From a virus, in IMG/VR virus record IMGVR_UViG_3300024346_006511, positions 92,127 to 156,126 of that record: DNA of 64,000 nt, one strand, 5' to 3'. Each line of letters opens with the position of its first letter. Positions within the stretch are counted from its first letter, which is position 1. Positions 3,496 to 26,303 of this stretch are shown here, one piece after another. The translations under genes and the position numbers were made by a program. Below the pieces are notes generated by a model. That model was not told where the DNA came from. It saw only the letters and a program-made list of their open reading frames with translations, and did no database searches.

Positions 3496-3511
3496 TTTAT
3501 GTTATCTTTAT

Positions 3512-3519: not shown

Positions 3520-3533
3520 TTCAACTTTTAAAT

Positions 3534-10355: not shown

Positions 10356-11683
10356 ATGTCTTTAGAGTACCCTAAGTTGTCGTATATTTTTTTTGTAATG
10401 TTAGTAATAGGTAGAATAACTCCATGAAGATTCTCTTTACCTTTGTATTCTTTAGAGATATACTCTCTAAATACTCTCTTATTATGTATAGCAATAGGAA
10501 TAGACTTTAACTTAAGTTCATTAAGTTCATCATCTGATTTTAATGTAATGCTTTTTAGTAACCTGGTAATAGCAATAACTCTATCAGCTTCAGAAACTAT
10601 CTTATCATAAGATTCGTCCCATAAAGAATCATAAGTCATATATCCCATATCTTTGAGTTTCTCTAAAGAAAACGGTGAACCCATTATTATAAAAGGATGC
10701 CCAACACTAATAGGTTTCCATATTTTTTCTGAGAAAAATATACATCCAGGGTCCATAACAGTTTCTGAAACTACTGATAGGAATGTACTTTCATAATTTG
10801 ATAAAGTAAAGTTTGTTGCTAAATTATCTACAGTTGAGATATCAATACTTCTTTCTCCTTCGCTTCTAAATTTATTAAACGAATTTTCGTTTATTACATT
10901 ACCTGTATAAATGTCTGAGTATCTTAATCTGTTTTTTGGGAAACTTAAACTTATCAATCCTTTGTTTATTATTCTTTCTTGCCACATTAGGTATCCAAAA
11001 AGAAGTCTATGGTTACGTGGCTGTCTGTTGTAAGATAAGAAATATTTTTGAGGATTACTAATTTTAGCATCAAAAGGTACAATTTTTTCTTCATCGACTA
11101 TATACTCCTCAGGTGGATTGAAAAATGTTTCGAATGAGCTGCAACCGTATGCATTTATTTTCAGGTTGTTAGCCTTAACATATGTATCACATATTAAATT
11201 ACCGTGTATTACGCTTACGCTATAATCAGGTAGCTCAGCTTTGATTCTCCATCTTTCAATTATATCTAGTTCAGTGTTTGCAGTTCTAGTATACTTCCCT
11301 TCTGTTGTACATTCAATAATTAAGGCACACTTACCTATCTTAATGTCCTCTAATACAAGTTTAGATATACAAGAAAAACCGGTATCTAAGTTTAATCTAA
11401 AAAAATTATGATTATAAACTCTAATTATGTAGATGTGTTTATTGTCACCTATGTCTTCTATTTCTACGTCCTCATAATCTTCATGGAATGAAAGAGAATA
11501 GTGATGATCGTTATACTTACTTGGATCCTCTATGTATGCATTAATTACATCAGGTGTAAGAGTATGAAGTAGAGTGGGTATTTTCCCACCTTCTTGCATA
11601 TTCCAAGTTCTAGAAGTGCCGTTTGGTCTATTGTGCCCTATTATACTGTCGTAGGGCTCTCTACTACATAATATCTTTTCCAT
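10352..11683 (-). CDS. Putative GT-B glycosyltransferase (GT10-like C-terminal motif), paralog 3
   Basis: FLSYNR.PR.HR and VSET...FSEKIWKPI..GHPF...WDESYD. Confidence 0.55.
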   Translation of the reverse strand: MEKILCSREPYDSIIGHNRPNGTSRTWNMQEGGKIPTLLHTLTPDVINAYIEDPSKYNDHHYSLSFHEDYEDVEIEDIGDNKHIYIIRVYNHNFFRLNLDTGFSCISKLVLEDIKIGKCALIIECTTEGKYTRTANTELDIIERWRIKAELPDYSVSVIHGNLICDTYVKANNLKINAYGCSSFETFFNPPEEYIVDEEKIVPFDAKISNPQKYFLSYNRQPRNHRLLFGYLMWQERIINKGLISLSFPKNRLRYSDIYTGNVINENSFNKFRSEGERSIDISTVDNLATNFTLSNYESTFLSVVSETVMDPGCIFFSEKIWKPISVGHPFIIMGSPFSLEKLKDMGYMTYDSLWDESYDKIVSEADRVIAITRLLKSITLKSDDELNELKLKSIPIAIHNKRVFREYISKEYKGKENLHGVILPITNITKKIYDNLGYSKDI

Positions 11684-13037
11684 TGCCTAGTTTATCGTAT
11701 ATTCCCCAAAGTTCTCTTAAGACTTGTTCTGGTTTTTCGCTTGTTCCGTATCCCCACTTCTGAATCATATTTCTATAATGAAGTTGTTTGTTGAACTCTA
11801 ACACTTCATGCATTTCTTTTCTTATCTCTATCAGCTCTTCTTTACTTTTTTTGCTAAATCTATCTACTTCTTTAAGAATCATTTCTACTCTTAATCTGTA
11901 TTCCGTTACATGGTCGTAACTTTCATCCCACCATCGATCAAAGGTCTTATATCCTCTATTTCTTAAGTAATTTAGAGTACCTGGGTTTCCTAAAAGAAAG
12001 AACGGGTGTCCTACTTGTATAGCTTTCCATGTTTTTTCTGATATGAATAGTGTTTTGTTCTCTACTAAAGTTTCAGTAATTATAGAACAAAAGGTTGATT
12101 GAAAATCTTGTAAATCTATATTACAGGCTAGGTTAAAGAATAATTTTTTACCAATCTCTATCGGCAGTTGTTTATTTAGCTTTGCATACTCTTGATCTCG
12201 GATACCATCTGCTCTTAATACATTATTTGGAGTCCACCAATCTGGTTTACCTAAACTAACTAAACCTTTATCGAGTAAGTTATATTCAATTAACTTAGCT
12301 CCTAAATAAATTCTAGGTCCTCTAGGATTTCTATTATAACTAAGGTATAAAAATTTATTATCGTTAGGAATAAAATCAATTAATGGCTCCTCAAATTTAT
12401 CTGCGTTCCAATTATCAAAAGTATTATAAGGGTGTACTTTTATTCCTGAGTTTTTAATATCATCGTGTCCGTCTGCTTCTAAGTTTCCAGTAAAGAAGTG
12501 AACTGATCCTTTAGGAAAATGAGCTTTTTTCCTCCATTCTTCTGCTATTTTAAAATCGTCATTTCCTTCCATTCCGGAATAACCTTCCCATGGGTAAAAT
12601 AGTACAACTGCAGCATCACCGTTTCTTATATCATTTTGATATTGTTGATCGATTAAACTAAATCCTAATTCTCTATTTAATTCAAAGAATTGAGGATTAA
12701 AAACAGTTATAATATATAAATGATTAGCGCCTGATAGTTTATCTTTACTTTTATAAAAACAGTGATTCGGATCTATAATATGAGGACGATGCTGTAGTTC
12801 TAATTTTTCAGCATCAAACCACTCTCCTGTTTCTCCAAAAAAATTCCAGATGCCTAAGTTATAAGGGTAGTGAAAAGTACCTGTTTCTTTTTTATACCAA
12901 GTCTTTGAAGTACCGTTAGGTCTAGGGCCAGCAAAAATAGAATCATAACCTTCTTCACTGAGGTTAATCTGCAGCCAGTCCAATCCGTCCCAGGTATCAG
13001 GTATAGGTAGGTAACTATTTTCAATCTTATTGCTCAT
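11664..13037 (-). CDS. Putative GT-B glycosyltransferase (GT10-like C-terminal motif), paralog 2
   Basis: LSYNRNPR and ITET...ISEKTWKAI..GHPF...WDESYD. Confidence 0.55.
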   Translation of the reverse strand: MSNKIENSYLPIPDTWDGLDWLQINLSEEGYDSIFAGPRPNGTSKTWYKKETGTFHYPYNLGIWNFFGETGEWFDAEKLELQHRPHIIDPNHCFYKSKDKLSGANHLYIITVFNPQFFELNRELGFSLIDQQYQNDIRNGDAAVVLFYPWEGYSGMEGNDDFKIAEEWRKKAHFPKGSVHFFTGNLEADGHDDIKNSGIKVHPYNTFDNWNADKFEEPLIDFIPNDNKFLYLSYNRNPRGPRIYLGAKLIEYNLLDKGLVSLGKPDWWTPNNVLRADGIRDQEYAKLNKQLPIEIGKKLFFNLACNIDLQDFQSTFCSIITETLVENKTLFISEKTWKAIQVGHPFFLLGNPGTLNYLRNRGYKTFDRWWDESYDHVTEYRLRVEMILKEVDRFSKKSKEELIEIRKEMHEVLEFNKQLHYRNMIQKWGYGTSEKPEQVLRELWGIYDKLGNGKDIM

Positions 13038-13974
13038 ACTTCTTTCCTTTAATTACTTTTGCTAATACTTTAGCTATGAGTTGATGACCTTTAGGTGATG
13101 GATGAGAACAAGGTGTCATTAGCCCTTTAGGAGTAAAGTTTTTAAGTTCTCTAGGCCAGAAGTACCATAGGTGATCATTTCCTGCTAAATCATGTCTATT
13201 TTCCCTATCTAATAGTACATCTACCATTTGCTTTCTTCCTTTTGGTAGCATAGCTAAGTTGCTCCAATCTATCGTGTCTACTAAGTTTACAATGAGTCCA
13301 TCTTCGTCTTTAAAGCCTGGTGTAAAGTCTGTAAGAGCGTCTATAAGTTTTTCTCTTTCAAAAGCATGAGTAAAAGAATTAACTAAAAGCAACTTTGCAT
13401 TATTAAGTTTGCACCAGTTTTGTACTTCGACAATGTTTGAAATAACTTCTAAAGCTTCAGTTACAGGTGAGTATACTTCAGTAGCATATCCACTCCATAA
13501 GTTCTGTAGACCAATTTCTTCGCTATCAGTTATAGTTGGCCATATTGTATGAAAATAGTTATGACTATTGTTCAGACCTTTATTAAAAAAGTCAAACCTA
13601 ACCATTTGACCTACGAAGAATATTACTATTTTTTCTTTTGCTACTCCTAAGTTTAAGTCTGGATGAAGAGTGGTTAGAGCTTTTACTGTTGCTCTGTTTC
13701 CGTTACCTCTATATCCTAAGTTAATAGGAGTATAATCAGGAAAATGTTTTTTACATAATACATTAACGAAAGCATTATTATGTTCCTCTTCTCTTAAGGA
13801 ATTAAATTCATCAGACATAGGATTAATCATAGTCATTTTAGATTCTGACCAATCATATTTCTCCCATGTCTCTTTCGATACAGCTCCTTGACCTTCGACA
13901 AAAGAATCTCCTAAAGCTATAATTAACTTAGAGTCTTTATTTACTTTTAAACTTTTTCTGATGCTGTATTGCAT
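13027..13974 (-). CDS. SGNH/GDSL-fold protein
   Basis: ALGDSFVEG, NLG..GNGN, CSHPS.KGH. Confidence 0.7.
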   Translation of the reverse strand: MQYSIRKSLKVNKDSKLIIALGDSFVEGQGAVSKETWEKYDWSESKMTMINPMSDEFNSLREEEHNNAFVNVLCKKHFPDYTPINLGYRGNGNRATVKALTTLHPDLNLGVAKEKIVIFFVGQMVRFDFFNKGLNNSHNYFHTIWPTITDSEEIGLQNLWSGYATEVYSPVTEALEVISNIVEVQNWCKLNNAKLLLVNSFTHAFEREKLIDALTDFTPGFKDEDGLIVNLVDTIDWSNLAMLPKGRKQMVDVLLDRENRHDLAGNDHLWYFWPRELKNFTPKGLMTPCSHPSPKGHQLIAKVLAKVIKGKKYEQ

Positions 13975-15290
13975 AATCTATTAAATTTGTGAAATCCTTT
14001 TGGAGGTTTAAAAAGAGCATTAAATGTTAAAACGTTTCTATTATATTTCAATCTAGATTTCATCCAGCGAAAATGATTATGCCATTCGTTATTATCAGCT
14101 AAAGAGTTAATGTTTTCTACTATAGCATCTAATCTTTCTATATTATCTAACTCATCATAAGATTCATCAAATAAATTATCAAAAGTAAGGTAACCTAGTT
14201 TTTTTAGTTCTTTCAATGAACCTTTAGCTCCTAATATTTGAAATGGATGACTACATGCTATAGGTTTAAATACTTTTTCTGATAAAAATACAGACTGTTG
14301 AGAATCGTCAAATTGAGCTTCACTAACTATAGTACACCATGAATTTAACATTGACTTTTCATTTAGTCTTGCAATCTTATCTCCAGGGTTAGCTAAGTTG
14401 TCTGTTCCATCCCAACGCATTGGGGTAAACTGATGTGAATGTTCTAACTGCTGTACTTCAGGAGACCAGCCGTCTATGTCTACAGCTTCGTGAAGTACTT
14501 CATCATTCCAGGGGTTCATACTTATTAATCCATCAGGAAGTAACCCTGCATGAAATAGTTTATTAAAAAGTGCTATTCTATGCTTCCTAGGTTTACGGTT
14601 TAGGAAGTTATAAGGTTTAATTAATAGTGGATTGTTATCTTTATATTTAAGGTGGTCTTCATAAGTAGGAATATTTTGACCTTTCCTATTATAGTGGTCT
14701 ATGTTAAGGTATACATCAAATTCAAAATGTGTATACCCAAGTGTCTGAATACATTTTTTACCTGTCTTTTTTTCCCACTCTTCAGCTCTCTGTTCTAGTT
14801 GAGCATTTCCTGTTGTAAGTATTATGTTACTCGGATCAATACTTAATCTAACCGCTTCATCGTAAAAGAAATCAAATAGCCAATCAGTATGGTAGCCCTC
14901 AAGAGTATTATCAAATAATATGTATGCTCTTCCTTCTCGTAAATGCTTAAGGTATGTATCGCTAACTAGATCAAATATAGTGCTATATTTTCCTGCGTAT
15001 CCTGCCCAAGTTAGAGGAGATTCATGAACTCCTACTGGGATAATATATTTAATGCTAGGGTCTTTAACTACATCTTCTACAGAGTATGTATTAATATTCC
15101 ATTTTATCTTATCTTCTCCTGATTGGAAAAATATCCAATCTTCAGTTCTCTTTTCATGAAGGCTTCTGTGTTCTGTCTTCAGTATATTTAACCTATTAGC
15201 ATACGGAGACAAGCAAATTCTTTCATTGCCATTTTTATCTTCACCTGCTAGGTTAAGAGATGTTTCTAAATTTTCAAATACTAGGTTCAT
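13947..15290 (-). CDS. Putative GT-B glycosyltransferase (GT10-like C-terminal motif), paralog 1
   Basis: FLNRKPRKHR and VSEA...FLSEKVFKPI..SHPF...FDESYD. Confidence 0.55.
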   Translation of the reverse strand: MNLVFENLETSLNLAGEDKNGNERICLSPYANRLNILKTEHRSLHEKRTEDWIFFQSGEDKIKWNINTYSVEDVVKDPSIKYIIPVGVHESPLTWAGYAGKYSTIFDLVSDTYLKHLREGRAYILFDNTLEGYHTDWLFDFFYDEAVRLSIDPSNIILTTGNAQLEQRAEEWEKKTGKKCIQTLGYTHFEFDVYLNIDHYNRKGQNIPTYEDHLKYKDNNPLLIKPYNFLNRKPRKHRIALFNKLFHAGLLPDGLISMNPWNDEVLHEAVDIDGWSPEVQQLEHSHQFTPMRWDGTDNLANPGDKIARLNEKSMLNSWCTIVSEAQFDDSQQSVFLSEKVFKPIACSHPFQILGAKGSLKELKKLGYLTFDNLFDESYDELDNIERLDAIVENINSLADNNEWHNHFRWMKSRLKYNRNVLTFNALFKPPKGFHKFNRLCNTASEKV

Positions 15291-16293
15291 CTTTCCAGAA
15301 ACTATATAGTCCTTTATCTAATTCATAATTTTCCCAAAAGAATCTTTTTCTTTTTGGTTGCTGTTGTGCCCAATCCCACATTTCACTTAAACCTTCGTTT
15401 AACTCTACGGTATATTCGTATCCTAATATCTCCTGTGACTTTGCCCAGGTTGGATAAGCATCTTTAACTTCATGTCTTCCTTCTACATGCTCAACTTTAC
15501 CGTTTTTAATAACATCTCTAAGAATAGCATTAGATTCGTTAATACTGTGAAATTTAATTCCACCTAAGTTAATAATCTGTTTTGATGCTTCTTTTATCTT
15601 AGAAGCTTTATATAGAGGTTCTAAACAGTCTTCAATATTACTAAATGCTCTAGTCTGAGTTCCATCTCCAAATATTGTCATTGCTTGTCCATTCATGTAT
15701 TGATACATCCAGATACCGAGAACGTTCCTATATTTATCCCATATGTTCTGCCCTATACCGTAGACATTATGAGGTCTAATAATACACCAGTCTAATCCGT
15801 GCTGTTCTCCAGCAACTTGAATATCCATCTCACAGGCGTATTTTGCAATTCCATACGGGTCTATAGGTTTAGGAATATCTCCTTCATCAAAAGGTCTTTT
15901 ACCTTCCCAACCGTGACCGTATACTGCCATAGAAGACGTAAATACTAACCTCTTTACGTTAGCTCTTATACATTCATTAACTATCTTTGCAGTAGCAACA
16001 ACATTGTTATTATAATTATATGTTCTTATAAAAGGGGAGAGACCTTCTGCGGCATATGCAGCAAAATGGTAAACATAATCCGGCTGATGTGCTGAAAAGA
16101 TACCTTGGATGTTTTCACTCACTAAATCAGTCTCATAAAAGATAGTATCCTTGTGAACGTTCTCTCTAAATCCTCCTGATAAGTTATCTATACCCACTAT
16201 TTTGGTATCTGGGTAGTTTTTTCTGTAGTATTCAGCTAACCTACTTCCTAGTAGTCCTGCAACACCTGTAATTAGTATAGTTTCTTTACTCAT
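15274..16293 (-). CDS. NAD-dependent NDP-sugar epimerase/dehydratase (extended SDR)
   Basis: TGVAGLLG, FTSSMAVYG, YGIAK (YxxxK), RPHNVYG, GDGTQTR. Confidence 0.92.
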   Translation of the reverse strand: MSKETILITGVAGLLGSRLAEYYRKNYPDTKIVGIDNLSGGFRENVHKDTIFYETDLVSENIQGIFSAHQPDYVYHFAAYAAEGLSPFIRTYNYNNNVVATAKIVNECIRANVKRLVFTSSMAVYGHGWEGKRPFDEGDIPKPIDPYGIAKYACEMDIQVAGEQHGLDWCIIRPHNVYGIGQNIWDKYRNVLGIWMYQYMNGQAMTIFGDGTQTRAFSNIEDCLEPLYKASKIKEASKQIINLGGIKFHSINESNAILRDVIKNGKVEHVEGRHEVKDAYPTWAKSQEILGYEYTVELNEGLSEMWDWAQQQPKRKRFFWENYELDKGLYSFWKDEPSI

Positions 16294-17191
16294 TGTCTTG
16301 GTTTTGTTCTATTATAACCTCTCTGAAAGTACTTACTAATTGGTCTATTCCGTCTACATATTGTATAGGTTCTAAATCAATCAGCTCTTCCATTTTACTA
16401 AAGTCTACTTTGTAGCTCCTACTATCATCAGGAGAGTAATACTTAACAGTAAAATCTAATTTATTTCTCGTTACCATTTTAAGTATTAATTCCTGTTTAG
16501 TAGTATTCAAAATATTATACCCAATATTTAATATACTTTGGAAAGCATTTTTTTCTGCAAGTTCTTTTAGTACCCCGCAGAGAGTATGTATATTGATATT
16601 AGGTCTCCATGCTTCTGGATCATATACTTCTAAGTATTGGCTAAATAACACATCCTTAACAAAGTTATTAACAAGTAAATCATTTCTACCTACTCCTGAT
16701 GTGCCAAATAAAGTTGATAGTCTAACTATTTTAAACCTATCTTCATCGTATTTTTTAAGTAGATTTTCAGAATCTATTTTTAGCTTAGAGTATAAAGAGG
16801 TTACTTTAGTAGTAGATAATTCATTAACCATATTCTTTCTGTAGCCGTAAACAGAACAGCTACTAAAGAAAATTACCTGAGTATTGTTGTTTTGGCAAAT
16901 ATCAAGGGTTGTTTTTAATCCTGCAAGATGAGGTAATGGTTCTTCTAAGTCATTTATTTCATTTAACCTAGGTGATGCCATATAGAAAACGTAATCTGCT
17001 TCATTAAGTTCAGTCTCATATCTACCTATATTCTTTACATCGTCATTAATTAACTTCACTTCATCAGGGTAACCAAAGTTTTGCCCATATGTTAAGTTAT
17101 CAATAACTTTTACTTCGTGTCCAAATTGTGGCAGATAAGTCATTAGTTGACTTCCAATAAATCCTGCGCCGCCTATTAATGTAAATTTCAT
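16286..17191 (-). CDS. NAD-dependent NDP-sugar epimerase/dehydratase/reductase (extended SDR)
   Basis: GGAGFIG, FSSCSVYG, YSKLK (YxxxK). Confidence 0.88.
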   Translation of the reverse strand: MKFTLIGGAGFIGSQLMTYLPQFGHEVKVIDNLTYGQNFGYPDEVKLINDDVKNIGRYETELNEADYVFYMASPRLNEINDLEEPLPHLAGLKTTLDICQNNNTQVIFFSSCSVYGYRKNMVNELSTTKVTSLYSKLKIDSENLLKKYDEDRFKIVRLSTLFGTSGVGRNDLLVNNFVKDVLFSQYLEVYDPEAWRPNINIHTLCGVLKELAEKNAFQSILNIGYNILNTTKQELILKMVTRNKLDFTVKYYSPDDSRSYKVDFSKMEELIDLEPIQYVDGIDQLVSTFREVIIEQNQDNE

Positions 17192-17193
17192 AA

Positions 17194-18204
17194 TTAGTCT
17201 CTTACCATATCAGCAGTACAACAGTGAAAAGAACCTCCTAATGTTCTAGAGTGTCTAATCTTTAAGTCTAATGCTTCTATGTTATATTTTTTTAGTTCGT
17301 TAATTAATTCTGTTTGTCTATTATCCACACATACTGTATTCTCGTCTAATGAGATTAGATTTATACCTACCCATTCAGATGCTCTTAATACTCCTTTATA
17401 TCCAATATCTACCATCGGAGGAGAATATATAATATCCCAACCTTTAAAGAGTTCTGGCATATTACTTTCGTTTATTCTTGACGGATTTACAAGTGCCAGA
17501 CCGTCTCTAAGAATAGCAATCGTAGAATCAATATGAGAATACGAATACATATTTTCTAAGAAGTGGACCTTATATTTATCTCCTAGAATATTCTTTAACC
17601 AAGTATACCCTTTCTTGTTTCCTGTATTAGAATTTAAGTAAAGAATATCGTCATTATGTCTGAGAATATTAGCTGCATCGAATACAGGTTCTACTTCAGT
17701 TAATGTTAATTTATCTAAGTCATCTCTTTGATACGAATCATCAGTCAATCTCGGTTTAGGAGCGCAAACCCATTTGGTTCCTTTGTCCATATAATCAATA
17801 AACAGCTCTCTATATGCATCGTTCTCAAACTGTCTAGATCTTAACGTCATAGGTGATTCTATAAGGGTATCTCCAATGACTGTCATAGTATCTCTAGGGC
17901 AGAATGTATAGTATTGATCTGTTTCCCAATAGCCGTTAGACACAGTTTTTTTCGTATCTAGCAAATTAGGTCGGTGAACTTTCGCTCCGAAATCTTCTAA
18001 TGCTTTTGCTAATAAATCTAGGTCTTCAACAGACTCTTCATACACTTGAGGATCAAATAAGCCTCTTTCTGATGAAGGTATTGAGTTCTTATCTGCATAA
18101 TTAATAGCATGTAAGTCAGTACCGTGAAATGGTTGGTTTGCATTATCTACTCTACCGACTATTACTTCTTTTAATTTACCGTATTCGTTTTTTACGTTAA
18201 CCAT
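17194..18204 (-). CDS. Amidinotransferase (glycine / scyllo-inosamine-phosphate amidinotransferase family)
   Basis: NEYGKLKEVIVG, CPRD, FDAAN, HID, GGSFHC (Asp-His-Cys catalytic residues). Confidence 0.88.
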   Translation of the reverse strand: MVNVKNEYGKLKEVIVGRVDNANQPFHGTDLHAINYADKNSIPSSERGLFDPQVYEESVEDLDLLAKALEDFGAKVHRPNLLDTKKTVSNGYWETDQYYTFCPRDTMTVIGDTLIESPMTLRSRQFENDAYRELFIDYMDKGTKWVCAPKPRLTDDSYQRDDLDKLTLTEVEPVFDAANILRHNDDILYLNSNTGNKKGYTWLKNILGDKYKVHFLENMYSYSHIDSTIAILRDGLALVNPSRINESNMPELFKGWDIIYSPPMVDIGYKGVLRASEWVGINLISLDENTVCVDNRQTELINELKKYNIEALDLKIRHSRTLGGSFHCCTADMVRD

Positions 18205-18793
18205 TCTTAAATACTTTAAAACTATTTAGATTAGGGTAATTTTTATATGACCACTTCTTTGGTACCTTAGCTACTGCATCGTTTAAAGAATGCAATCCTT
18301 GAGTTGCTACCTCAGGAGTCATATAATAATGATATCCTATTTCTTCTATATCTTGTTGGGCCCATGGACCGTTTGAATTGTCTCTACCGTCATAAGTCAT
18401 GCATCTTAATTTATGAGATGCCTCCCTATTGTCTGTTAGTATCATACCTCCTCTTCCTAAACTTAAATGCTTTTGGAATTGAAAAGAAAGTACCATGAAC
18501 GTACCTTTAATATACGAATTTTTTTTCCAATAAACGGCTGAATCTATAATATTATTTGTAATATAGTAATAATCTTCCCATTCATCGTGAATAAATGTAC
18601 GTTTAATATTTAGCTTATCTGCTAACATAGGTACGGATAGATAAGTATGATAAGGAACTAAGATTTCTTCTGCCTTTGTATATCTCAAAGCCAATTCTAA
18701 TCCGTGTGTACAACAGTCTACTGCTACACCGTAATCAGCTCCATAGAACTCAGCAACTTGTTTCTCAAATGTTCCTACTAATCCAAAACTCAT
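18197..18793 (-). CDS. Short DegT/DnrJ/EryC1/StrS PLP-dependent sugar aminotransferase
   Basis: FEKQVAEF.G..YGVAVDCCT, IIDSA, SFQFQKHL..GRGGMI. Confidence 0.82.
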   Translation of the reverse strand: MSFGLVGTFEKQVAEFYGADYGVAVDCCTHGLELALRYTKAEEILVPYHTYLSVPMLADKLNIKRTFIHDEWEDYYYITNNIIDSAVYWKKNSYIKGTFMVLSFQFQKHLSLGRGGMILTDNREASHKLRCMTYDGRDNSNGPWAQQDIEEIGYHYYMTPEVATQGLHSLNDAVAKVPKKWSYKNYPNLNSFKVFKNG

Positions 18794-19839
18794 ACTAATG
18801 TCGAATAAGTGTTTAATGACTTTACATACTCTCTCAATATTCTATCTTTACCTTCGTTTATAAAATTATAAGGTACTGGTCTCATTCTCTGAATTGATGA
18901 TAACCATGTTGAATGTGGGGCACCAACTATAAAATTAGAGTTAGCTAAACACATCATATCTATTACGCTTTCTAGTGCAATTCTTTTAGAGCACTCAACA
19001 TCTTCTAAGTTTACATTCTTTGTTAAGTAAGAAGGTAGTGAATTAATTACATCTCTTCTTGTATATATTCTTGCATTAAATTTTGTTTTAAGATGTATAT
19101 ATTCCTTTTCTAATAAGTCACAACTAATATAAAACTTTTGATTTGGTGTTTGTTCTAGTATTTCTTTTATTAAAGCTGCGTATTTGCTATCTTCCCAGTA
19201 CTTGTAAATTGTATCATCTACTTGTGTATATTGAATATTATCTCTAACACTATCAGGAAGTTCTTTATAATTTTTATTTGTTTTGTATACTCCGTTTCCT
19301 CTTCTTATATGAAGACCTACACACCCTGTAGCTATTTGTCTGATAGCAGATCTTAGTTGGTGGTCTTTAATTTTTACACGGTGAAGTCCAGTAGGAATTT
19401 CTTTCTCATCTGCTCTAGCTAAAATCTTATCGATACAGGACCAATCAAAATCCACAACATATCTATTTTCTGGAAGATCGTAGTCTATGTAATCAGAAGT
19501 GTTCAGAAACTTATCCACTTCTTCGTTGCCTATTACTGGCAATTTAGTAATCTCTTTAGTATCGTAATTGAAATCGTAATTAGCTAACCAATCAGTTACT
19601 TCATCGTCATCACCTTCTAGTTTATAAATCTTTTCTGCTGGGAATTCTAAGTACTCGGTTTCATGCCAATACTTGTGTTCTAGTTGTAAGAAATGGTCTG
19701 TAGTAGAAGCGTTCTCTAAAACATAACAGGCATCCCAGTGTAGTAACCTATTGCCGAATCCTGTATCATAAGGTGTGTGTCCACCACCCCATGGTTCTTT
19801 AACTCTAATATACCTTCTATTTATAGGATCTTTTGCCAT
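18790..19839 (-). CDS. Fucosyltransferase-like GT-B enzyme (GT11/GT23/NodZ-type)
   Basis: GFGNRL, VGLHIRRG, FYISCD, DMMCLANSNFIVG...STW. Confidence 0.7.
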   Translation of the reverse strand: MAKDPINRRYIRVKEPWGGGHTPYDTGFGNRLLHWDACYVLENASTTDHFLQLEHKYWHETEYLEFPAEKIYKLEGDDDEVTDWLANYDFNYDTKEITKLPVIGNEEVDKFLNTSDYIDYDLPENRYVVDFDWSCIDKILARADEKEIPTGLHRVKIKDHQLRSAIRQIATGCVGLHIRRGNGVYKTNKNYKELPDSVRDNIQYTQVDDTIYKYWEDSKYAALIKEILEQTPNQKFYISCDLLEKEYIHLKTKFNARIYTRRDVINSLPSYLTKNVNLEDVECSKRIALESVIDMMCLANSNFIVGAPHSTWLSSIQRMRPVPYNFINEGKDRILREYVKSLNTYSTLV

Positions 19840-21344
19840 TTTACTTTCCCTTTGCTTTTTTTATTTCTCTCTGCTATTGCAGGTGGTAATGTTTGTTGTT
19901 TTTTCTTTCCTATATCTGGTTTATATTCTCCTGATTCGAAGTGAGTAATCCTACCGTCGTTTACTTTAACATCAGGTATTGATTGATCTACTTCTATAGT
20001 GTCGTACCATTCAACTAAGTCGGGGAAAGCTTCCCTAATGTCATGTCCTTTTCTTTTATCATATTGTTCATAAAAAGATTTAAAATCATGATAATGTTTT
20101 TCTTTATCTTCTTCTGTTTCTACATGACCTTGCTCTACTACATCAATATAGTCTATTAATCTTTCGATTTGAGCTTTTTCATGATCCATCATCAATGGAT
20201 GATCTTTTTTAATTTCGTACCAATCAGCTAATTTTTTATGTAGTTTCTTTTTTTCACTATCTGGTAAGTTTAATGGCGACATAAATGCTGGCCATCTAAG
20301 TATGTTCAAATCAATACCTGGGTTATTCATACCGTATTTTTCCTTAAGTACGAACATATCATCCATAAATTCAGTTATAGAATATAGACATAATGAGTTG
20401 ATAGTCATCATACAAATTACTTGTCTGAAGTTTCCTTCTTCTATTACTTTAACTAGATTATTTCTCCATACATCCCATACTAACCCATCTCTAATATATT
20501 CTGCTTGTATACCAAATGCTTCACAAGAAGTATATAAATCAAACTCTTTAATAGGGAGTGTATTAGACATATCAATTAACTTATTAATTAACTTATCATG
20601 TACTCCAAGATTAGAGTTAACAGCTAGTCTAAGATTAGGTGCAGGTGTTTTCTGCATAGTCTCTAAAAACTTCCAGAAGTTAAACGATGCAGAAGGTTCT
20701 CCACCGGTTACTCTAAGTTCCTGCAAGCCAGGAGCAAGTGTTGGCCACCATTCTATAAATGCATCTACATATGGATTATCTTTATTATTCTTACCAAAGA
20801 TATCTGCCCATGAACCATCTGAATGATATGCTCCTGCTGATGTTGTTTTAAATTTCTGATAAGGACCGTTTTCTTCTATGTCCTTAGCCCATGTAGTTGA
20901 GTACCCAGTATTACAATACGAACAAGCAAAGTTACAAGTTCTATCAAAAGATACTTCTACGGTCTTTAAAGGTATGTCATAATCCCATGGCAGTTCAGCT
21001 AGTTCAGCTATATCTTCATCAGAGTATATTCTACTCTTAAAAACTCTATCTCCTATTGAGTCGTTTCCTATATCTTCTACTTTCCAACAATATGAACACT
21101 CTGCTGGTCTAACACCTTCAAGCATCATTTTACGTATCTTCTTTTTGAAAGCAGTATTATGTAATGCTGAAGGATTAGTTTTAATCTCTTCTAAATCTAT
21201 TGGATGAGGTAAAGGTAGGTGACAGGAGTTAGTAAACCCATGTCCTAAATGTAAAGATGCATTGTACCATTTTGCAGCACAAAAACTTTCACTAACAGAA
21301 TCTAAATGTTCTGTTCTCCATTTTACTAAGTTCTGATCTGCCAT
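19821..21344 (-). CDS. Radical SAM enzyme with N-terminal twitch/SPASM-like cysteine cluster, paralog 2
   Basis: CAAKW...SCH...CSYCW, then CNFACSYC and TGGEP. Confidence 0.85.
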   Translation of the reverse strand: MADQNLVKWRTEHLDSVSESFCAAKWYNASLHLGHGFTNSCHLPLPHPIDLEEIKTNPSALHNTAFKKKIRKMMLEGVRPAECSYCWKVEDIGNDSIGDRVFKSRIYSDEDIAELAELPWDYDIPLKTVEVSFDRTCNFACSYCNTGYSTTWAKDIEENGPYQKFKTTSAGAYHSDGSWADIFGKNNKDNPYVDAFIEWWPTLAPGLQELRVTGGEPSASFNFWKFLETMQKTPAPNLRLAVNSNLGVHDKLINKLIDMSNTLPIKEFDLYTSCEAFGIQAEYIRDGLVWDVWRNNLVKVIEEGNFRQVICMMTINSLCLYSITEFMDDMFVLKEKYGMNNPGIDLNILRWPAFMSPLNLPDSEKKKLHKKLADWYEIKKDHPLMMDHEKAQIERLIDYIDVVEQGHVETEEDKEKHYHDFKSFYEQYDKRKGHDIREAFPDLVEWYDTIEVDQSIPDVKVNDGRITHFESGEYKPDIGKKKQQTLPPAIAERNKKSKGKVKWQKIL

Positions 21345-21931
21345 TATATTTTATTCATAAAGTTACAATCTCCAGTTAAATCAACTGATTTATCGTATAT
21401 ATACTCTTCAAAGGTGTGATGGCAAAGTAACTTATCTTCTTGCGTAACCTTAAATTCGTACAACTCTATATCAGTATAGTTTAAATTATATCCATTTTTA
21501 GGGAAGTTTCCTGCCCCAAATATTATATGAGGATCCATTTCAGTTGCAAATGCCTTTTCAGTCAAATCAACCTTGTGTACCTCTCTACTATTAATAAATA
21601 CCGTAAAACTTTGGTTTGGAATGTGCTTCCATGTAATTTTTAACCTTACATCGTCAAATACGGCAAAAGGTAAATCCCAGTACTCTGTTTTCTTATCCTC
21701 ATTCATCATCGTAAACAGTAACCTACCTTCGTATATATCGATTGCTGTATAGTGAGGAAGCAATGTAAAAAGAGTTCCTATAATACCTTCTACCTTCTTG
21801 ATTTTCATATCTACATATACTTCAAAAGGATTCAACCCAGTAAGTACTTTATTTGCAGGATATTCTGGAAAGGTATCACATATATGACTTGGCCAAAAGA
21901 CCCATGGATTACCACTACTTATATTTAGCAT
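21344..21931 (-). CDS. Hypothetical protein, possibly stand-alone LamG/ConA-like domain
   Basis: Beta-rich; FTVFINS...IIFGAG...LYEFKV...HHTFEE...DLTGDCN resembles a LamG C-terminal pattern. Confidence 0.45.
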   Translation of the reverse strand: MLNISSGNPWVFWPSHICDTFPEYPANKVLTGLNPFEVYVDMKIKKVEGIIGTLFTLLPHYTAIDIYEGRLLFTMMNEDKKTEYWDLPFAVFDDVRLKITWKHIPNQSFTVFINSREVHKVDLTEKAFATEMDPHIIFGAGNFPKNGYNLNYTDIELYEFKVTQEDKLLCHHTFEEYIYDKSVDLTGDCNFMNKI

Positions 21932-23288
21932 ACATTTTATCTAATTTAGGAAAAGTCTCTAAGAAATTAGTTCCTCTTCTCTTATCTAATTCATCAACAA
22001 ATATTACAAAGTCTTCTCTATTCTTTTCTTTATCGTAAAGAGCACTATGAGCTTTCGAATAATCGTATATTCGCTTTATCTTTTGTATCTCAACATTTGT
22101 AAAACCATATGCCTCGTGACTAAACTCTTTCTGACCATAGTATAAAGCTTTCTTTGCAGCTTCGAGTATAAGTTCCTTATGCTCTTCTTCCAATATACGA
22201 ACTGAAAGGTGATTAGGCCACCTTAAGTACGAAGTATCTAGTTGAATAGCTGAAATACTGTATCTCTGACCATTGTGGTACTTCTTTTTAATCTCAAATA
22301 TCTTATCTACTAACTCTCCGTAAGTAAAAACAGATAAAGCATTAAAAGTAGCCATAACATTAATCGTTACTTTAGGTAATTCAGTAAGTATCTTTTCTAC
22401 ATTTACCCAGAATTTATCATAATCCAGTCCATACCTAGTATATTCAGCTTGTGACTTAGTAGCTTCGACAGATGTAAATACTACTAATTCTTTTACCTTA
22501 TCGTTTTCACATATGACTTTTGCTTTTTCAATAAACTTATCAATTAAAGCATCGGGTACTCCAAGATTAGTATTAATTGATAGAGCTAACTCTGTGTTAG
22601 GTTCTTCTTGTTCGATTATATAGTCTAATACCTTAAAGGTATCCTTCGCAAGTAGAGGCTCTCCTCCAGTTATTCTGAATGTATGTAGATCTCTGTATAA
22701 ATCTGGCCACCATTTCCAAAATGCATCTACGTAAGGATTATGCTCGGAGTGCTTATACGGCATTTCACCTTTCGCTCTTAATTGTTCTATACCGTTAAAT
22801 TTGGTAGAAGTTGGATATGCTCCATGCTTCTCAATTTCATCAACCCATTTAGATGAGAATTGTGGACCACAGTAAGCACATTTAAAATTACATGTATTTG
22901 AAAAAGATACCTCTACGTAGCGAGGATTAAAATCATCTCTCCAGTTAGCCTTAACGATATCATCATAACTTTTGATAGACCAAGGCTCTGAAGATTTAAA
23001 TACTCTATCTGAAAATGAGTTAGAGTTATCTTCTACGTTCCAACAGTAATTACACTCTTCAGGTCTTTTACCTTCAAGCATCTCTTTCCTCTTAAATTTT
23101 TTAAATTTAGTATTGTGAAGAGCTGTTGGATTACGTTTTATTTCTGCTTCTTTTATTTTATGAGGAGAAGGGTGATGGCAAGAATGAGTCATACCCATAG
23201 ACAGGTGGATAGTAGATTGTGTCCATTTTGCAAGACACATACCACAGCCTACTTTATCTAACTTCCCTTTTACTTCTTCTGATGTCAT
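21915..23288 (-). CDS. Radical SAM enzyme with N-terminal twitch/SPASM-like cysteine cluster, paralog 1
   Basis: CGMCLAKW...SCHH...CNYCW, then CNFKCAYC and TGGEP. Confidence 0.85.
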   Translation of the reverse strand: MTSEEVKGKLDKVGCGMCLAKWTQSTIHLSMGMTHSCHHPSPHKIKEAEIKRNPTALHNTKFKKFKRKEMLEGKRPEECNYCWNVEDNSNSFSDRVFKSSEPWSIKSYDDIVKANWRDDFNPRYVEVSFSNTCNFKCAYCGPQFSSKWVDEIEKHGAYPTSTKFNGIEQLRAKGEMPYKHSEHNPYVDAFWKWWPDLYRDLHTFRITGGEPLLAKDTFKVLDYIIEQEEPNTELALSINTNLGVPDALIDKFIEKAKVICENDKVKELVVFTSVEATKSQAEYTRYGLDYDKFWVNVEKILTELPKVTINVMATFNALSVFTYGELVDKIFEIKKKYHNGQRYSISAIQLDTSYLRWPNHLSVRILEEEHKELILEAAKKALYYGQKEFSHEAYGFTNVEIQKIKRIYDYSKAHSALYDKEKNREDFVIFVDELDKRRGTNFLETFPKLDKMYAKYK

Positions 23289-24700
23289 AGTTTTATATTG
23301 ATCATTTTAGCCCAAGGTGTTAGTATGTCTTCACCTACTAGTTCATATTTAAGTGAGTTTATTCCATCTAATTTATAATCGATTTCATCTTGTTGCATTT
23401 GAAGTACATATCTACGCTCGTTTCTTGCTGTTGTTTCTCCTTTTGCGAACTTTCCGTTAACGATTCCTTCATCTTTGTGAGGTAAACATCTAAATCTACC
23501 GTCAGATCTATAAGGTAATATTGAGTTTGGTATTTTAATGTCCTCTACTTTTGTTTCAGTCATATACTCTTGAAACTCAGTTTGAGGATTTTTAAAATCT
23601 ATATCAATAGTTAACTCGTCTTTAGGTATAGTAGTCTCTAAGTTACTCACCTCTTTAGGTGTTAAAGCTCTTTTCCACGCAAACACCTTAGCAATATCTC
23701 CTTTGAAGAATTTTATAGTACTATCATCCGGTTCTGAAGGTGATGTACCGATATACCATGGCTCTGAACCGTAGTTCTTTAATCTACCTTGAAACTCTAA
23801 TGGTGATTGAGAACCGAATCCTCCTCTAGTATCTACTTCTGAGCCATTAAGGTAGAAGTGTGATTTTCTATCCATCGAATCAAATACAGCAGTCACCCAA
23901 GTCCATTGTTCATCGTATCTTTTTACCCACATATAGTTATGTTGATGAAAGTTGTTCCAATACGTTAACGAAATGGCTCTAGAATTATTAAATCCAATAC
24001 CGTAATCATATCCTTTAACCCTTATAACTGGGTATTCAACATATTTTCTTTCGTTACTACCGATCAAGAATATAGGGTTCTTATCAGGTTGCTGTCTAGC
24101 TCTCATTAATACCGAAACTGTGTGTGATCTAGAGTTTAGGGATCTCATAGGTTTAGTAAACGGTACTTTGATAAATGAATTATCTCCATTAAACCTCTTA
24201 TAGGGTTGAGAGGTGAGAGATTCTTGAATATATGTGTTATTAGTTAGACCTTCTTTATTACATCTCCAAAATAGATCATCGTCTTCCATTCCCCAATCCC
24301 AATATTCATTAGAATATCCATTAGTGGCTTCTACTTGTTCTTTTGAAAATACTACAGCTCCACCAAAATACTCATGGTATTTAAGACCGTAGTTCATTTG
24401 TGATATCTGTGTAGCAATGTGCCTAGGACCATCTTCTGGAAAGGAGTAGTCTGCACCACCACCTTTTTCAGGTATCATATCTATATCATGCCATACAATA
24501 TGTGTACATCCTTCTTCGAAAGCATGTTTAGCAGCAATGTTTTTAGTTGCTCCTCTATTGAATAATTTATCATCTACTTGATGACAAAAGTACATTTGAA
24601 AATCGATATTTTGCTCTTTTAAGTACTTACCTACTTTAGGTATAAACTCGTTAAGGTGCATTTCTCTATTACGATAAGGTACACATACTCCTAATTTCAT
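23285..24700 (-). CDS. GT7 (beta-1,4-galactosyltransferase-like) with inserted LamG domain, paralog 2
   Basis: VPYRNR, FNRG, HDID, YFGG, WGMEDDD; LamG-like middle; C-terminal GRFRCLPH...DGINSLKY. Confidence 0.85.
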   Translation of the reverse strand: MKLGVCVPYRNREMHLNEFIPKVGKYLKEQNIDFQMYFCHQVDDKLFNRGATKNIAAKHAFEEGCTHIVWHDIDMIPEKGGGADYSFPEDGPRHIATQISQMNYGLKYHEYFGGAVVFSKEQVEATNGYSNEYWDWGMEDDDLFWRCNKEGLTNNTYIQESLTSQPYKRFNGDNSFIKVPFTKPMRSLNSRSHTVSVLMRARQQPDKNPIFLIGSNERKYVEYPVIRVKGYDYGIGFNNSRAISLTYWNNFHQHNYMWVKRYDEQWTWVTAVFDSMDRKSHFYLNGSEVDTRGGFGSQSPLEFQGRLKNYGSEPWYIGTSPSEPDDSTIKFFKGDIAKVFAWKRALTPKEVSNLETTIPKDELTIDIDFKNPQTEFQEYMTETKVEDIKIPNSILPYRSDGRFRCLPHKDEGIVNGKFAKGETTARNERRYVLQMQQDEIDYKLDGINSLKYELVGEDILTPWAKMINIKL

Positions 24701-26097
24701 AATTTAACTGTTAATTGGGTTATATTTCTAACATTTGAGTTAGATAGTATCCTATATTTTAATGTAGTTAAGCCATCTTGTTCTAAAGTAGTAGATCCGT
24801 ACATAACTTCATTCATGAACTTTAACTGATTATACCTGGTTGTAATGTCTTTCCATCCTGTTGTCAAGAATCCATTATCCTCGTGATCTAAGGTCTTGTA
24901 ATCACTAGTTCTTCTGAATGGTACTTTAAGTACTCTATGTTTAGGTAAGTCGTATTGAACAACTTCACAGTCTACTATTTGACTATGCTCCTCTAGCTTA
25001 GCTATATCGATTAACTTATACTCTTTTATAAATTTAGCGTCTCCATATGATACTAAATTACCAGCACTTTGGTAGCTTTCAAAGTTATCTGCTAATCCAA
25101 AGTATTTGTTGTTTTGAACAGTAACTATTTCTTCATACGTTAATGCTTTATTCCATACAGCATAGGTATTAATATACCCTTTGAAAAAGTTATTATCTTC
25201 TTCTCTATCTGGGTCTGTACATCCTATATAAGCTTTACCTGCTTTATCGTATAGTCTCATAGGATTTTTTAATACCTCCGTACCTATGTGTTTAGCATTT
25301 TGGTATAATGAAGCAGTGTTTTTCTCTTTATTATATACAAAAGTTAACGTAGTCTTGACATTAGGTACTATATTAGAGTATATAAAATGGTGGTTCTTTT
25401 TGCTATCAAAAAACTCAACAGCAAATCTCCTAAAACTCGTATACATTATATTAAAGTCAAAACCTGGTATGCCAAAGGCTACGTACTTATCTTCTCTCTT
25501 ATTAGAGTCTAATGTATAACCTTTAGGTTCTAATGAAATATGTATAGAAAAATCACCTCTGGTTCTAATCCTATTAGGAACTTCAACATAAGAACTAACT
25601 CCGTTTAATTTTAAAGCTGCTGTGTTAGGGCCAGCATCATTTAGAGGAAGCTCGTCTAGCTTAATTCCTTTAAGTCTACATCTATGCAGTAAGTCATCAT
25701 CTTCAAATCCCCATCCCCAATACCTATTAGAAAAACCATTTATCTTTTTAAAGTCTTCTACTGGAAACATTGTTATGCCTCCAAAGTATTCCTCAAACGG
25801 TATATCTTGTGTAGCTAAATGTACAGGGTGATCAGCGTAAGAATAGTCCACTTTCTTAGGTAACATATCTACGTCGTGAAATACGACATAATCACATCCT
25901 AGTTTTTCTGCCTCTTGAAATCCTATGTTTAAAAGTTTACCTCTATTGAAAGATTGACTATCGTCTTGCTCTACTACTATTAGTTCATAAGGAATTTTTG
26001 CTCCATATAACTTAGCTTGGATAAGCATTTTAAACTTCAAGAGATGATCGTACCTGTCTCTGTAAGGTACAATTACTCCGAGTTTATGTACTGCCAT
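24697..26097 (-). CDS. GT7 (beta-1,4-galactosyltransferase-like) with inserted LamG domain, paralog 1
   Basis: VPYRDR, FNRGKLLNIG, HDVD, NGFSNRYWGWGFEDDD; LamG-like middle; C-terminal DGLTTLKY. Confidence 0.88.
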   Translation of the reverse strand: MAVHKLGVIVPYRDRYDHLLKFKMLIQAKLYGAKIPYELIVVEQDDSQSFNRGKLLNIGFQEAEKLGCDYVVFHDVDMLPKKVDYSYADHPVHLATQDIPFEEYFGGITMFPVEDFKKINGFSNRYWGWGFEDDDLLHRCRLKGIKLDELPLNDAGPNTAALKLNGVSSYVEVPNRIRTRGDFSIHISLEPKGYTLDSNKREDKYVAFGIPGFDFNIMYTSFRRFAVEFFDSKKNHHFIYSNIVPNVKTTLTFVYNKEKNTASLYQNAKHIGTEVLKNPMRLYDKAGKAYIGCTDPDREEDNNFFKGYINTYAVWNKALTYEEIVTVQNNKYFGLADNFESYQSAGNLVSYGDAKFIKEYKLIDIAKLEEHSQIVDCEVVQYDLPKHRVLKVPFRRTSDYKTLDHEDNGFLTTGWKDITTRYNQLKFMNEVMYGSTTLEQDGLTTLKYRILSNSNVRNITQLTVKL

Positions 26098-26303
26098 TAT
26101 TTGTCCTTGCCTTCAGTTAGATTATTATGCCATTCTGATAAGTAAAACTGTATTCTTCCGTCCCAGTCTTCTTTGTCGATTTCTTCAAACCATACAGTTA
26201 GAGCATCTAATGATACAGCGATCTTCTCTAACGCTTTAGTTTTTCTTTCTTCGATTAGAACTTTTTCAGCTTCTAATACTTCTTTGTCGATTTTTGCACT
26301 CAT
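26097..26303 (-). CDS. Small hypothetical protein
   Basis: 68 aa; overlaps both neighbours at stop/start junctions. Confidence 0.65.
   Translation of the reverse strand: MSAKIDKEVLEAEKVLIEERKTKALEKIAVSLDALTVWFEEIDKEDWDGRIQFYLSEWHNNLTEGKDK

Follow-up and report, generated by a model that had tools for sequence, protein, structure and literature searches.

Coupled genes for a StrB1-type amidinotransferase and a half-size DegT-like aminotransferase in a glycan operon of a marine phage, and their possible role in making a guanidino sugar

The DNA analyzed here is a stretch of 64,000 nucleotides (called the window below), which comprises bases 92127-156126 of the 156-kb IMG/VR record IMGVR_UViG_3300024346_006511, estimated to be 94% complete. 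Portal, terminase, sheath, tube and tail-fibre genes were found in the record, and the major capsid protein shares 66% identity with its counterpart in Flavobacterium phage vB_FspM_immuto, a myophage of 160 kb (Immutovirus) from the Baltic; the virus is a marine phage of Flavobacteria-type hosts. Nearly all genes are carried by the minus strand, and an operon of ~24 kb, at ~5.7-29.8 kb of the window, lies between the genes of the tail sheath and tube and those of the tail fibre. The subject of this analysis is the part of the operon from 15274 to 23288, and in particular its L-arginine amidinotransferase (AT) and the small DegT-type aminotransferase encoded next to it, named mini-DegT here. 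This part consists of eight tightly packed open reading frames (ORFs), all intact and on the minus strand, of which the adjacent ones overlap by 1-19 nt or sit 2 nt apart. In the order of transcription, from 23288 to 15274, these are:

21915-23288, minus strand: radical S-adenosylmethionine (SAM) enzyme 1 of the N-terminal-twitch family, 457 aa (NF033640 'N_Twi_rSAM', E 2.6e-101)
21344-21931, minus strand: 195-aa protein between the two radical SAM enzymes, without family match, kept with the radical SAM pair in close relatives
19821-21344, minus strand: radical SAM enzyme 2 of the N-terminal-twitch family, 507 aa (NF033640, E 4.8e-92)
18790-19839, minus strand: O-FucT/NodZ/FUT8-like glycosyltransferase (GT), 349 aa (HIRRGN motif, of the form HxRRG; Atlas clusters)
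18197-18793, minus strand: mini-DegT, half-size sugar-aminotransferase fold using pyridoxal phosphate (PLP), 198 aa (PF01041, E 1e-19)
17194-18204, minus strand: predicted StrB1-type L-arginine amidinotransferase, 336 aa (PDB 1bwd, E 1.3e-90; five active-site residues, indel pattern and tree)
16286-17191, minus strand: SDR1, extended short-chain dehydrogenase/reductase (SDR) of the epimerase/oxidoreductase type, 301 aa (PF01370, E 4e-19)
15274-16293, minus strand: SDR2, GalE-like nucleoside diphosphate (NDP)-sugar 4-epimerase/oxidoreductase, 339 aa (PF01370, E 4e-44)

The comparison with solved structures showed that residues 1-335 of the AT align with residues 3-339 of the StrB1 chain (PDB 1bwd; 307 bits) at ~48% identity. 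AGAT/GATM, CyrA, SxtG and HsvA share the fold and the catalytic Cys-His-Asp machinery with the phage AT, but the other PDB matches were weaker, with 181-198 bits against the 307 for StrB1 (HsvA 2e-57, 198 bits; SxtG 2e-52, 181 bits; AGAT 3e-52, 181 bits). The residues D105, D176, H224, D226 and C328 align with D108, D179, H227, D229 and C332 of StrB1, and in an alignment of ten diverse relatives these five active-site positions were either invariant or at least 90% conserved. AGAT-like proteins contain one insertion of 8-10 residues and two insertions of 2 residues, which are absent from StrB1 and from all the viral proteins. No Pfam match for the AT was obtained at E ≤ 0.01, which was not taken against its family membership because the match to 1bwd is full-length. 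Judged by its sequence, the AT is predicted to be a true member of the StrB1 type, its active site being intact. The start of its gene overlaps the stop of the DegT-type gene by 8 nt, which makes the two translationally coupled. An earlier note on this DNA, made from the letters alone, was right that a DegT-type gene overlaps an amidinotransferase with intact Asp/His/Cys motifs, all five StrB1 residues being kept; the FucT-like GT and the 195-aa ORF, which are interspersed among these genes, do not figure in it.

A search of 1.84 billion cluster representatives returned 1,374 relatives of the AT at E ≤ 0.001 and 176 at E ≤ 1e-30. When a profile built from the 10-sequence alignment was run on viral contigs and prokaryote genomes, the AT was found to be encoded in at least 590 IMG/VR viral contigs and in 184 stretches of prokaryote genomes. 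In a maximum likelihood tree of 107 sequences, the viral and bacterial StrB1-like proteins (99 rows) formed one superclade against an AGAT-like outgroup, with a value of 95 in the SH-like approximate likelihood ratio test (SH-aLRT). The bacterial StrB1-like sequences, including the Streptomyces griseus protein, were placed in one clade (58 of 59; SH-aLRT 98), and one sequence from a metagenome-assembled genome (MAG) of Bdellovibrionales was placed among the viral ATs, which make up five or six deep clades beside the bacterial clade. The AT of the window belongs to a viral clade of 17 (SH-aLRT 99), outside the bacterial clade that holds StrB1. The labels in the tree were verified against the PDB; with 775 bits to 1bwd, the protein from S. 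griseus was identified as StrB1 itself, and the best match of the outgroup sequence P0307 is AGAT. The phylogeny against StrB1, AGAT and SxtG, which had been proposed as a check, thus puts the enzyme on the StrB1 side, with the SH-aLRT of 95 and with no AGAT-type insertions.

The gene context of the bacterial relatives was also compared. The commonest neighbours of the 59 dereplicated bacterial StrB1-like genes were megasynthases of the polyketide synthase/non-ribosomal peptide synthetase (PKS/NRPS) type (18 loci), ABC exporters, ATP-grasp ligases, ornithine/arginine decarboxylases and methyltransferases, and a DegT-family gene (397-422 aa) was found within 10 kb of the AT only in three streptomycin-type Streptomyces loci. 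Because the members of the bacterial clade mostly adjoin PKS/NRPS, ATP-grasp and decarboxylase genes, the likeness to StrB1 does not fix the acceptor of the AT, and the context must decide; the automatic annotation 'inosamine amidinotransferase' is often too specific. The bacterial carriers (loci L088-L167) were cyanobacteria, Acidobacteriota, Heliobacteria and actinomycetes, and mostly not aminocyclitol clusters.

The mini-DegT covers only positions 26-109 and 163-236 of the Pfam DegT profile. In an alignment of 28 members D84, S103-F-Q105, K108, G115-G116 and a GYHYYMTPE block were invariant; the PLP motif of the protein from the window reads S103-F-Q-F-Q-K108, and D84 corresponds to the Asp for the pyridine nitrogen. 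The AlphaFold2 model of mini-DegT had a predicted local distance difference test score (pLDDT) of 89.6, and Foldseek returned 168 matches to it at E ≤ 0.001. The top ones listed were DegT-family PLP enzymes, namely GDP-perosamine synthase, AHBA synthase, PseC, ArnB and BtrR, all of 360-420 aa, with template modelling (TM) scores of 0.62-0.75 on the query and ~0.33-0.41 on the target. The two-domain architecture of DegT enzymes (360-420 aa, with a C-terminal small domain) was absent from mini-DegT, no solved DegT-family structure among the top Foldseek matches listed is as short as this protein, and the shortness is conserved across the whole family. At least 7,936 relatives of 108-347 aa were found at E ≤ 1e-5, the best 120 of them being 195-226 aa long. 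That mini-DegT could be a gene fragment was ruled out by these matches of similar length and by the invariant D84 and SFQxxK108. Hence, as modelled, mini-DegT corresponds to the PLP core of a sugar aminotransferase from which the C-terminal domain is missing. In pattern scans it was located in at least 588 viral loci, as compared to only 26 in the genomes of 185,579 prokaryote species (most of them in MAGs or single-cell assemblies and a few in Bdellovibrio), which makes mini-DegT a very large, almost purely viral family.

To describe the viral context of the AT, neighbours within 5 kb were counted in the 39 viral loci that were left after dereplication at 90% AT identity. The most frequent ones belonged to the GT-B family described below (24 loci), mini-DegT (16), Ugd (16) and N-twitch radical SAM enzymes (14), and these were followed by a 165-172-aa protein (12), the 349-aa FucT-like protein (11), B12-binding radical SAM enzymes (10), 2-oxoglutarate (2OG) oxygenases (7) and carbamoyltransferases (5). 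A phmmer search with the proteins of the window against 84 viral loci gave a similar list: the GT-B family in 50, mini-DegT in 42, Ugd-like proteins in 38, N-twitch radical SAM enzymes in 36 and B12 radical SAM enzymes in 24. The GT, Ugd and N-twitch radical SAM families were not found by phmmer in any of 80 bacterial AT loci, where the generic matches were SDR2-like (9), SDR1-like (4), DegT-like (3, full-length) and B12 radical SAM (1) proteins.

The mini-DegT gene is located directly upstream of the AT gene in the close relatives of the window, in locus L015 and in the clade of L059, L070, L072 and L080, while it lies 1.4-3.4 kb from the AT in other clades and in the cyanophage S-SCSM2R. The linkage of the two genes in other genomes, on which the earlier note had staked its reading, was thus found in part: the pair occurs in 16 of the 39 loci, spread over at least three deep clades, and also in S-SCSM2R, but it is not obligate, with 59% of the AT loci lacking mini-DegT and 92% of the mini-DegT loci lacking the AT. 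Among 73 loci picked by mini-DegT, 6 contained the AT and 28 a GalE-like SDR, and this joint occurrence of mini-DegT with a GalE-like SDR is as expected for a keto-sugar transaminase. The counts portray mini-DegT as a sugar transaminase in general use among viruses, which is joined by the AT in the minority of glycan clusters. In one viral clade the AT is adjoined only by Ugd-like and GT-B genes. The carbamoyltransferases near the AT in 5 of the 39 viral loci are of the NodU/CmcH type (e.g. L039:12717-14201), which suggests O-carbamoylation as a further glycan decoration in some versions of the system.

The two SDRs, which had been described as following the amidinotransferase, both match PF01370. 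SDR1 has the motifs SSCSVYG and YSKLK and is without the Glu of dehydratases and decarboxylases; its best PDB matches, which were weak (~1e-11), were 6vo6, a putative sugar-nucleotide epimerase/dehydratase, and UDP-glucuronate decarboxylases. SDR2 is GalE-type, with the motifs SSMAVYG and YGIAK, and its best PDB match was the UDP-glucose 4-epimerase 4zrm (3.6e-42). The gene that follows the AT in the near relatives L009, L010 and L012 encodes the 165-172-aa protein and not SDR1. This protein abuts the AT in 12 of the 39 viral loci across clades, including S-SCSM2R, and is absent from the window; it gave no Pfam or PHROG match, and when its sequences were aligned they showed the HxD...H...R pattern that small 2OG/Fe(II) oxygenases typically have. 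Examples of this 2OG-oxygenase-like protein are:

L009:2379-2888
L010:2300-2794
L012:11014-11532
L001:11498-11992
L073:9480-9998

That the position after the AT is taken by an NAD-dependent oxidoreductase in some loci and by an oxygenase in others would agree with a role of these enzymes in supplying or processing an oxidized carbon. In a sister viral clade, an SDR1-like domain is fused to a GT-B protein of the family with members of 443-457 aa, directly after the AT, which hints that the SDR and the GT act on the same sugar. These fusions, of 707-735 aa, are:

L016:11013-13136
L020:11013-13172
L025:11008-13215
L028:10999-13152

The two radical SAM enzymes scored 339.6 and 309.1 bits against NF033640, well above the curated cut-off of 170, which bears out the view of them as two twitch-like radical SAM enzymes upstream of the DegT and AT pair. 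In radical SAM enzyme 1 the residues C18, C37, C79 and C82, together with C133-x3-C137-x2-C140, are conserved in 28 homologues, and radical SAM enzyme 2 has the same Cys pattern. Because four N-terminal Cys and the CX3CX2C motif are conserved, each of the enzymes probably holds two clusters, as far as can be read from the sequence. The analogy to BtrN of butirosin synthesis, which the earlier note had drawn, did not hold: the four extra conserved Cys are located N-terminal to CX3CX2C, the C-terminal twitch of the BtrN type was absent, and in the PDB there was no match to any solved enzyme, with BtrN not reached at E ≤ 10. In locus L015 (2528-5329) and in loci L016-L027, the first N-twitch radical SAM enzyme is part of a longer ORF (685-934 aa), where it is fused to an additional domain. 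The 195-aa ORF between the two enzymes had no match in Pfam (up to E ≤ 10), NCBIfam or PHROG; the idea that it could be a LamG relative of the GT7 enzymes was rejected, as both BLASTP and Pfam at E ≤ 10 were empty.

The surrounding parts of the operon, and the structural genes at its two sides, are as follows:

3010-5276: tail sheath and tube
7231-8400, minus strand: Ugd-like NDP-sugar 6-dehydrogenase (PF00984 and PF03721; PDB UDP-glucose 6-dehydrogenases, ~3e-19)
8457-10355, minus strand: B12-binding radical SAM enzyme, KedN5-like (NF033712, 2.5e-61, below its cut-off)
10352-15290, minus strand: three paralogous GT-B glycosyltransferases (443, 457 and 447 aa), with an SGNH/GDSL-like protein at 13027-13974
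23285-28759, minus strand: two GT7-like GTs with LamG domains, a GT2, a methyltransferase and a DUF6734 protein (Pfam); the block ends beside the tail-fibre genes
29828-33385: tail fibre

The GTs in the operon number about nine, and DNA hypermodification as the role of the operon was set aside given this number. The 349-aa protein had no direct Pfam match, and its nearest Atlas clusters (0.95-0.96) carry PF10250, PF05830 or PF19745. The three GT-B paralogues match one another, belong to no Pfam or PHROG family, and have relatives that occur several per locus in many viral contigs. All Foldseek matches of the AlphaFold2 model of the 457-aa member (pLDDT 80) were GT-B enzymes, the top one being the pseudo-glycosyltransferase VldE at a TM score of only ~0.36. 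The paralogues also share a conserved 'ETxxxxxxFxSEKxxKP' block, which recalls the motif of GT10 fucosyltransferases.

No terminator-like sites were found on the minus strand in 5.2-24 kb, and a scan for sigma-70 promoters gave fewer hits than the shuffled expectation, the consensus being uninformative for a Bacteroidota-type phage. A marine metagenome from 2020, other than the source, contained the stretch 15274-23288 at ~99% identity, and more than half of the sampled words of this 8-kb stretch recur in seawater metagenomes up to 2024; megablast against 50,697 phage records gave no close DNA relative. In three marine metatranscriptome runs (X18-X20, one of them cDNA and two 'metatranscriptomic WGS'), short contigs were 90-97% identical to parts of 15274-23288, namely SDR2, the AT, mini-DegT, the FucT-like GT and the radical SAM enzymes. 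These contigs come from relatives and are possibly DNA-derived; they hint at expression only weakly and were not taken as proof of transcription.

The whole 156-kb record (94% complete) was searched by family for functions that the phage does not encode. There was no match for inositol-1-phosphate synthase, in a search for which the Bacteroides thetaiotaomicron control was positive, or for a Gfo/Idh/MocA dehydrogenase, and the record contained no second DegT and no sugar nucleotidyltransferase (NTP_transferase). It follows from the lack of a nucleotidyltransferase and of inositol-1-phosphate synthase that the phage must start from host nucleotide sugars (or from a host cyclitol). Bac_transf, Glycos_transf_4, Wzx flippase and Wzy polymerase were also absent from the record; with no lipid-carrier, flippase and polymerase genes, the phage alone cannot run a lipid-linked surface-polysaccharide pathway. 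In the Pfam and NCBIfam scans of the operon there were no ATP-grasp, decarboxylase or NRPS genes, and no exporter or self-resistance gene turned up, although exporters were not searched by family. No kinase appeared in the Pfam scans of the operon, where no kinase family was searched specifically, and no formyl- or acetyltransferase is present alongside the SDRs, mini-DegT and the AT.

What the genes encode, their active-site residues, the fold, the coupling and the repeated joint occurrence were observed above; the substrates, the order of steps and the glycan target are inferred as follows. The eight genes would be the sugar-tailoring core of one long phage operon that builds a decorated glycan. 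A keto-sugar would be made by an oxidoreductase, the candidates being SDR1, SDR2 or one of the radical SAM enzymes, and mini-DegT would turn the keto group into an amine via PLP, with Lys108 forming the Schiff base and Asp84 placed on the pyridine nitrogen. Cys328 of the AT, aided by His224, Asp226, Asp105 and Asp176, would then accept the amidino group of L-arginine with release of ornithine, and the AT would hand this group on to the newly formed amine of the sugar, so that a guanidino-deoxy sugar results. Its placement in an oligosaccharide would be due to the O-FucT-like GT, the three GT-B proteins, the two GT7-like/LamG proteins and the GT2, and the B12 radical SAM enzyme, the methyltransferase and the SGNH enzyme may decorate it further. 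The glycan would most likely be carried by a soluble acceptor, probably the virion proteins; such an acceptor is favoured because lipid-carrier, flippase and polymerase genes are missing and because the operon lies in the virion module. We regard it as an evenly balanced proposition that the AT and mini-DegT pair puts a guanidino group on a sugar within a glycan which the phage builds from host nucleotide sugars. That this would be the first natural glycan with a true guanidino sugar, displayed on virions, is put forward more tentatively, and a zwitterionic surface glycan, as the earlier note had envisaged, is a possibility.

Several observations weigh against this proposal. The C-terminal domain of DegT enzymes helps to bind the nucleotide sugar, and the use of an NDP-sugar by mini-DegT is uncertain because this domain of the solved members is absent. 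Both SDRs are epimerase-type and without the Asp/Glu of 4,6-dehydratases or decarboxylases, and the sources named above for the keto-sugar are candidates only. An amine made by mini-DegT cannot be the universal acceptor of the AT, because in 23 of the 39 viral loci no aminotransferase gene lies within 5 kb of the AT, and because in several lineages the AT is located away from recognizable glycan genes. In L031, L034, L037, L043, L063, L065 and L074 the AT has few or no glycan neighbours and stands beside a 360-520-aa protein (e.g. L037:3251-4333), which is weakly similar to the SAM-binding part of DNA methyltransferases (PHROG 12517, 498). The bacterial members of the StrB1-like clade work in non-sugar contexts. 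Finally, virion glycosylation is read solely from the gene position and the absence of export genes.

The proposal can be compared with several known systems. The action of a DegT enzyme and then of an amidinotransferase on one carbon would have its precedent in the streptomycin-type clusters. In the streptidine branch, where StsC is followed by StrB1, there is likewise an amidinotransferase with the same five residues and indels and a DegT-fold PLP enzyme alongside. On the other hand, the phage AT belongs to a deep viral clade, the aminotransferase has 198 aa as compared to ~400-420 aa, inositol synthase and dehydrogenase are lacking, and the genes are interleaved with many GTs in an operon of the virion module. 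The scheme of oxidation, transamination and amidination that had been modelled on streptidine therefore stands in part: its DegT and AT logic is present and offers the best model at hand for the two coupled genes, but the context is that of glycan assembly and not of an aminoglycoside pathway. The routes to UDP-4-amino-4-deoxy-L-arabinose (Ugd/ArnA/ArnB), perosamine and viosamine also combine a Ugd-like enzyme, extended SDRs and a DegT-fold enzyme; ArnB, PseC and perosamine synthase were among the best structural matches of mini-DegT, and UDP-glucuronate decarboxylases among those of SDR1. These routes differ from the phage set in that the phage SDRs are without the decarboxylase/dehydratase Glu/Asp, and in that the aminotransferase is followed by the AT and by no formyl- or acetyltransferase.

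Glycosylation of capsids and tails by GTs encoded beside structural genes is known from mycobacteriophages, and chloroviruses and mimiviruses have glycan machinery of their own. As in such virion glycosylation systems, the window has soluble GTs in or beside the structural module and is without lipid-carrier, flippase, polymerase and export genes; its set is, however, much larger and chemically richer (the AT, mini-DegT, three radical SAM enzymes and Ugd), and it is known here from genes alone. The closest cultured case is the Synechococcus phage S-SCSM2R, whose ORF305-309 were annotated as an 'AHBA synthase family' protein, a radical SAM enzyme, a GT, a 2OG oxygenase and an 'inosamine amidinotransferase' (BMC Biol 2025; PMC12801897). 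Its mini-DegT (52% identity) and AT (43%) lie within 3 kb among glycosyltransferases, as in the window, while the phage is a T4-like cyanophage, its radical SAM enzyme is different and shorter, and a small 2OG oxygenase instead of an SDR is located by the AT.

One rival to the proposal is that the AT acts on a non-sugar amine, such as an amino acid, a polyamine, a protein lysine or an amino-acid or amine substituent that the glycan already bears, e.g., on a uronic acid, with mini-DegT merely belonging to the same tailoring operon. It is a serious rival because many viral ATs have no aminotransferase nearby (59% of the loci), and the same is suggested by the clade with only Ugd-like and GT-B genes beside the AT, by the lineages with a methyltransferase-like neighbour and without glycan genes, and by the PKS/NRPS, ATP-grasp, decarboxylase and methyltransferase neighbours of the bacterial StrB1-like genes. 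Characterized relatives of the AT use glycine (AGAT, CyrA), lysine (AmtA) and polyamines (HsvA) as acceptors, which counts for this explanation as well. However, the start of the AT gene overlaps the stop of mini-DegT and the pair is adjacent in several deep clades, the operon contains no ATP-grasp, decarboxylase or NRPS gene, and the indels of the AT match those of StrB1 and not of AGAT; this StrB1-type indel pattern reportedly accompanies an active site that is more open and would suit a bulky acceptor. We consider a non-sugar acceptor unlikely on balance.

Alternatively, the glycan, with or without a guanidino sugar, could remodel the envelope polysaccharide or lipopolysaccharide of the host by way of the host lipid-carrier pathways, e.g., as a block to superinfection or a change of the surface. 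This would agree with the glycan cluster of the cultured relative immuto, which lies apart from the virion genes, and the undecaprenyl phosphate machinery of the host could finish the pathway. The position of the operon between the tail sheath and tail fibre genes speaks for the virion instead, as does the lack of an initiating phosphoglycosyl transferase, a flippase and a polymerase in the phage, and the LamG lectin-like domains on two of the GTs are compatible with protein targets. We consider envelope remodelling unlikely as well.

A free small molecule, either aminoglycoside-like or a guanidino-cyclitol, assembled as a pseudo-oligosaccharide by soluble GTs, would follow the streptidine logic of a DegT enzyme with a StrB1-type AT, and the bacterial loci with a DegT gene near the AT were all streptomycin-type clusters. 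Inositol can be provided by Bacteroidota hosts, which counts for this explanation, and the missing lipid-carrier genes would fit assembly in the cytoplasm too. VldE was the top Foldseek match of the GT-B family, though at the TM score of ~0.36, and the versions of mini-DegT (as the AHBA-synthase-family protein), radical SAM enzyme and amidinotransferase in S-SCSM2R were named 'antibiotic synthesis genes', from annotation only (PMC12801897). Against this, ~nine GTs are far above the number in known aminoglycoside pathways, the radical SAM enzymes are related to BtrN at the superfamily level only, the operon is in the late virion module, and the Pfam and NCBIfam scans brought up no gene for export or self-resistance, with the limit on exporters given above. 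The guanidino-cyclitol considered in the earlier note is weakened in particular by the lack of inositol-1-phosphate synthase and of a Gfo/Idh/MocA dehydrogenase in the phage, even with a possible supply from the host, and the small molecule offered there is less likely than glycan tailoring, the region being interleaved with the GTs. We therefore hold a small-molecule product to be decidedly improbable. In its more specific form, a free guanidino pseudo-oligosaccharide that this lytic phage would make in the course of infection, that is built by the soluble GT-B proteins on the amino-to-guanidino sugar or on a host cyclitol, and that acts on the host or on competing phages or cells, would be a long shot.

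That the AT could be a hydrolase of the arginine deiminase or dimethylarginine dimethylaminohydrolase (DDAH) kind instead of a transferase is highly improbable: these enzymes belong to the same superfamily, some relatives are automatically named 'N-dimethylarginine dimethylaminohydrolase' and NCBIfam gave a weak DDAH match (E 0.0098 over 58 residues), but full-length similarity was found only to StrB1, HsvA, SxtG and AGAT, with no deiminase or DDAH among the PDB matches at E ≤ 1.

Full-text literature searches returned no characterized phage pathway of the kind proposed, in agreement with the earlier note, and no description of a guanidino sugar in a glycan was found in the literature searched; the one relevant paper that turned up was the description of S-SCSM2R, and searches for guanidino sugars with amidinotransferases, for twitch radical SAM enzymes in phages and for Immutovirus yielded nothing on function. 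As far as we know, aminocyclitol antibiotics such as streptomycin are the only place in nature where sugars bear true guanidino groups, and glycans are not known to have them. The half-size DegT protein is of interest in its own right, as a minimal scaffold of a PLP transaminase. If the proposal that the AT and mini-DegT pair makes a guanidino sugar for a phage glycan is true, it would provide glycobiology with a new, strongly cationic building block, and a function for an enzyme pair that is present in at least several hundred uncultured viral contigs. The existence of a cultured carrier, S-SCSM2R, makes the idea directly testable. It would also raise the question of the role of charged glycans in marine phages, which may lie in adsorption to anionic host polysaccharides, in protection of the virion or in remodelling of the surface.

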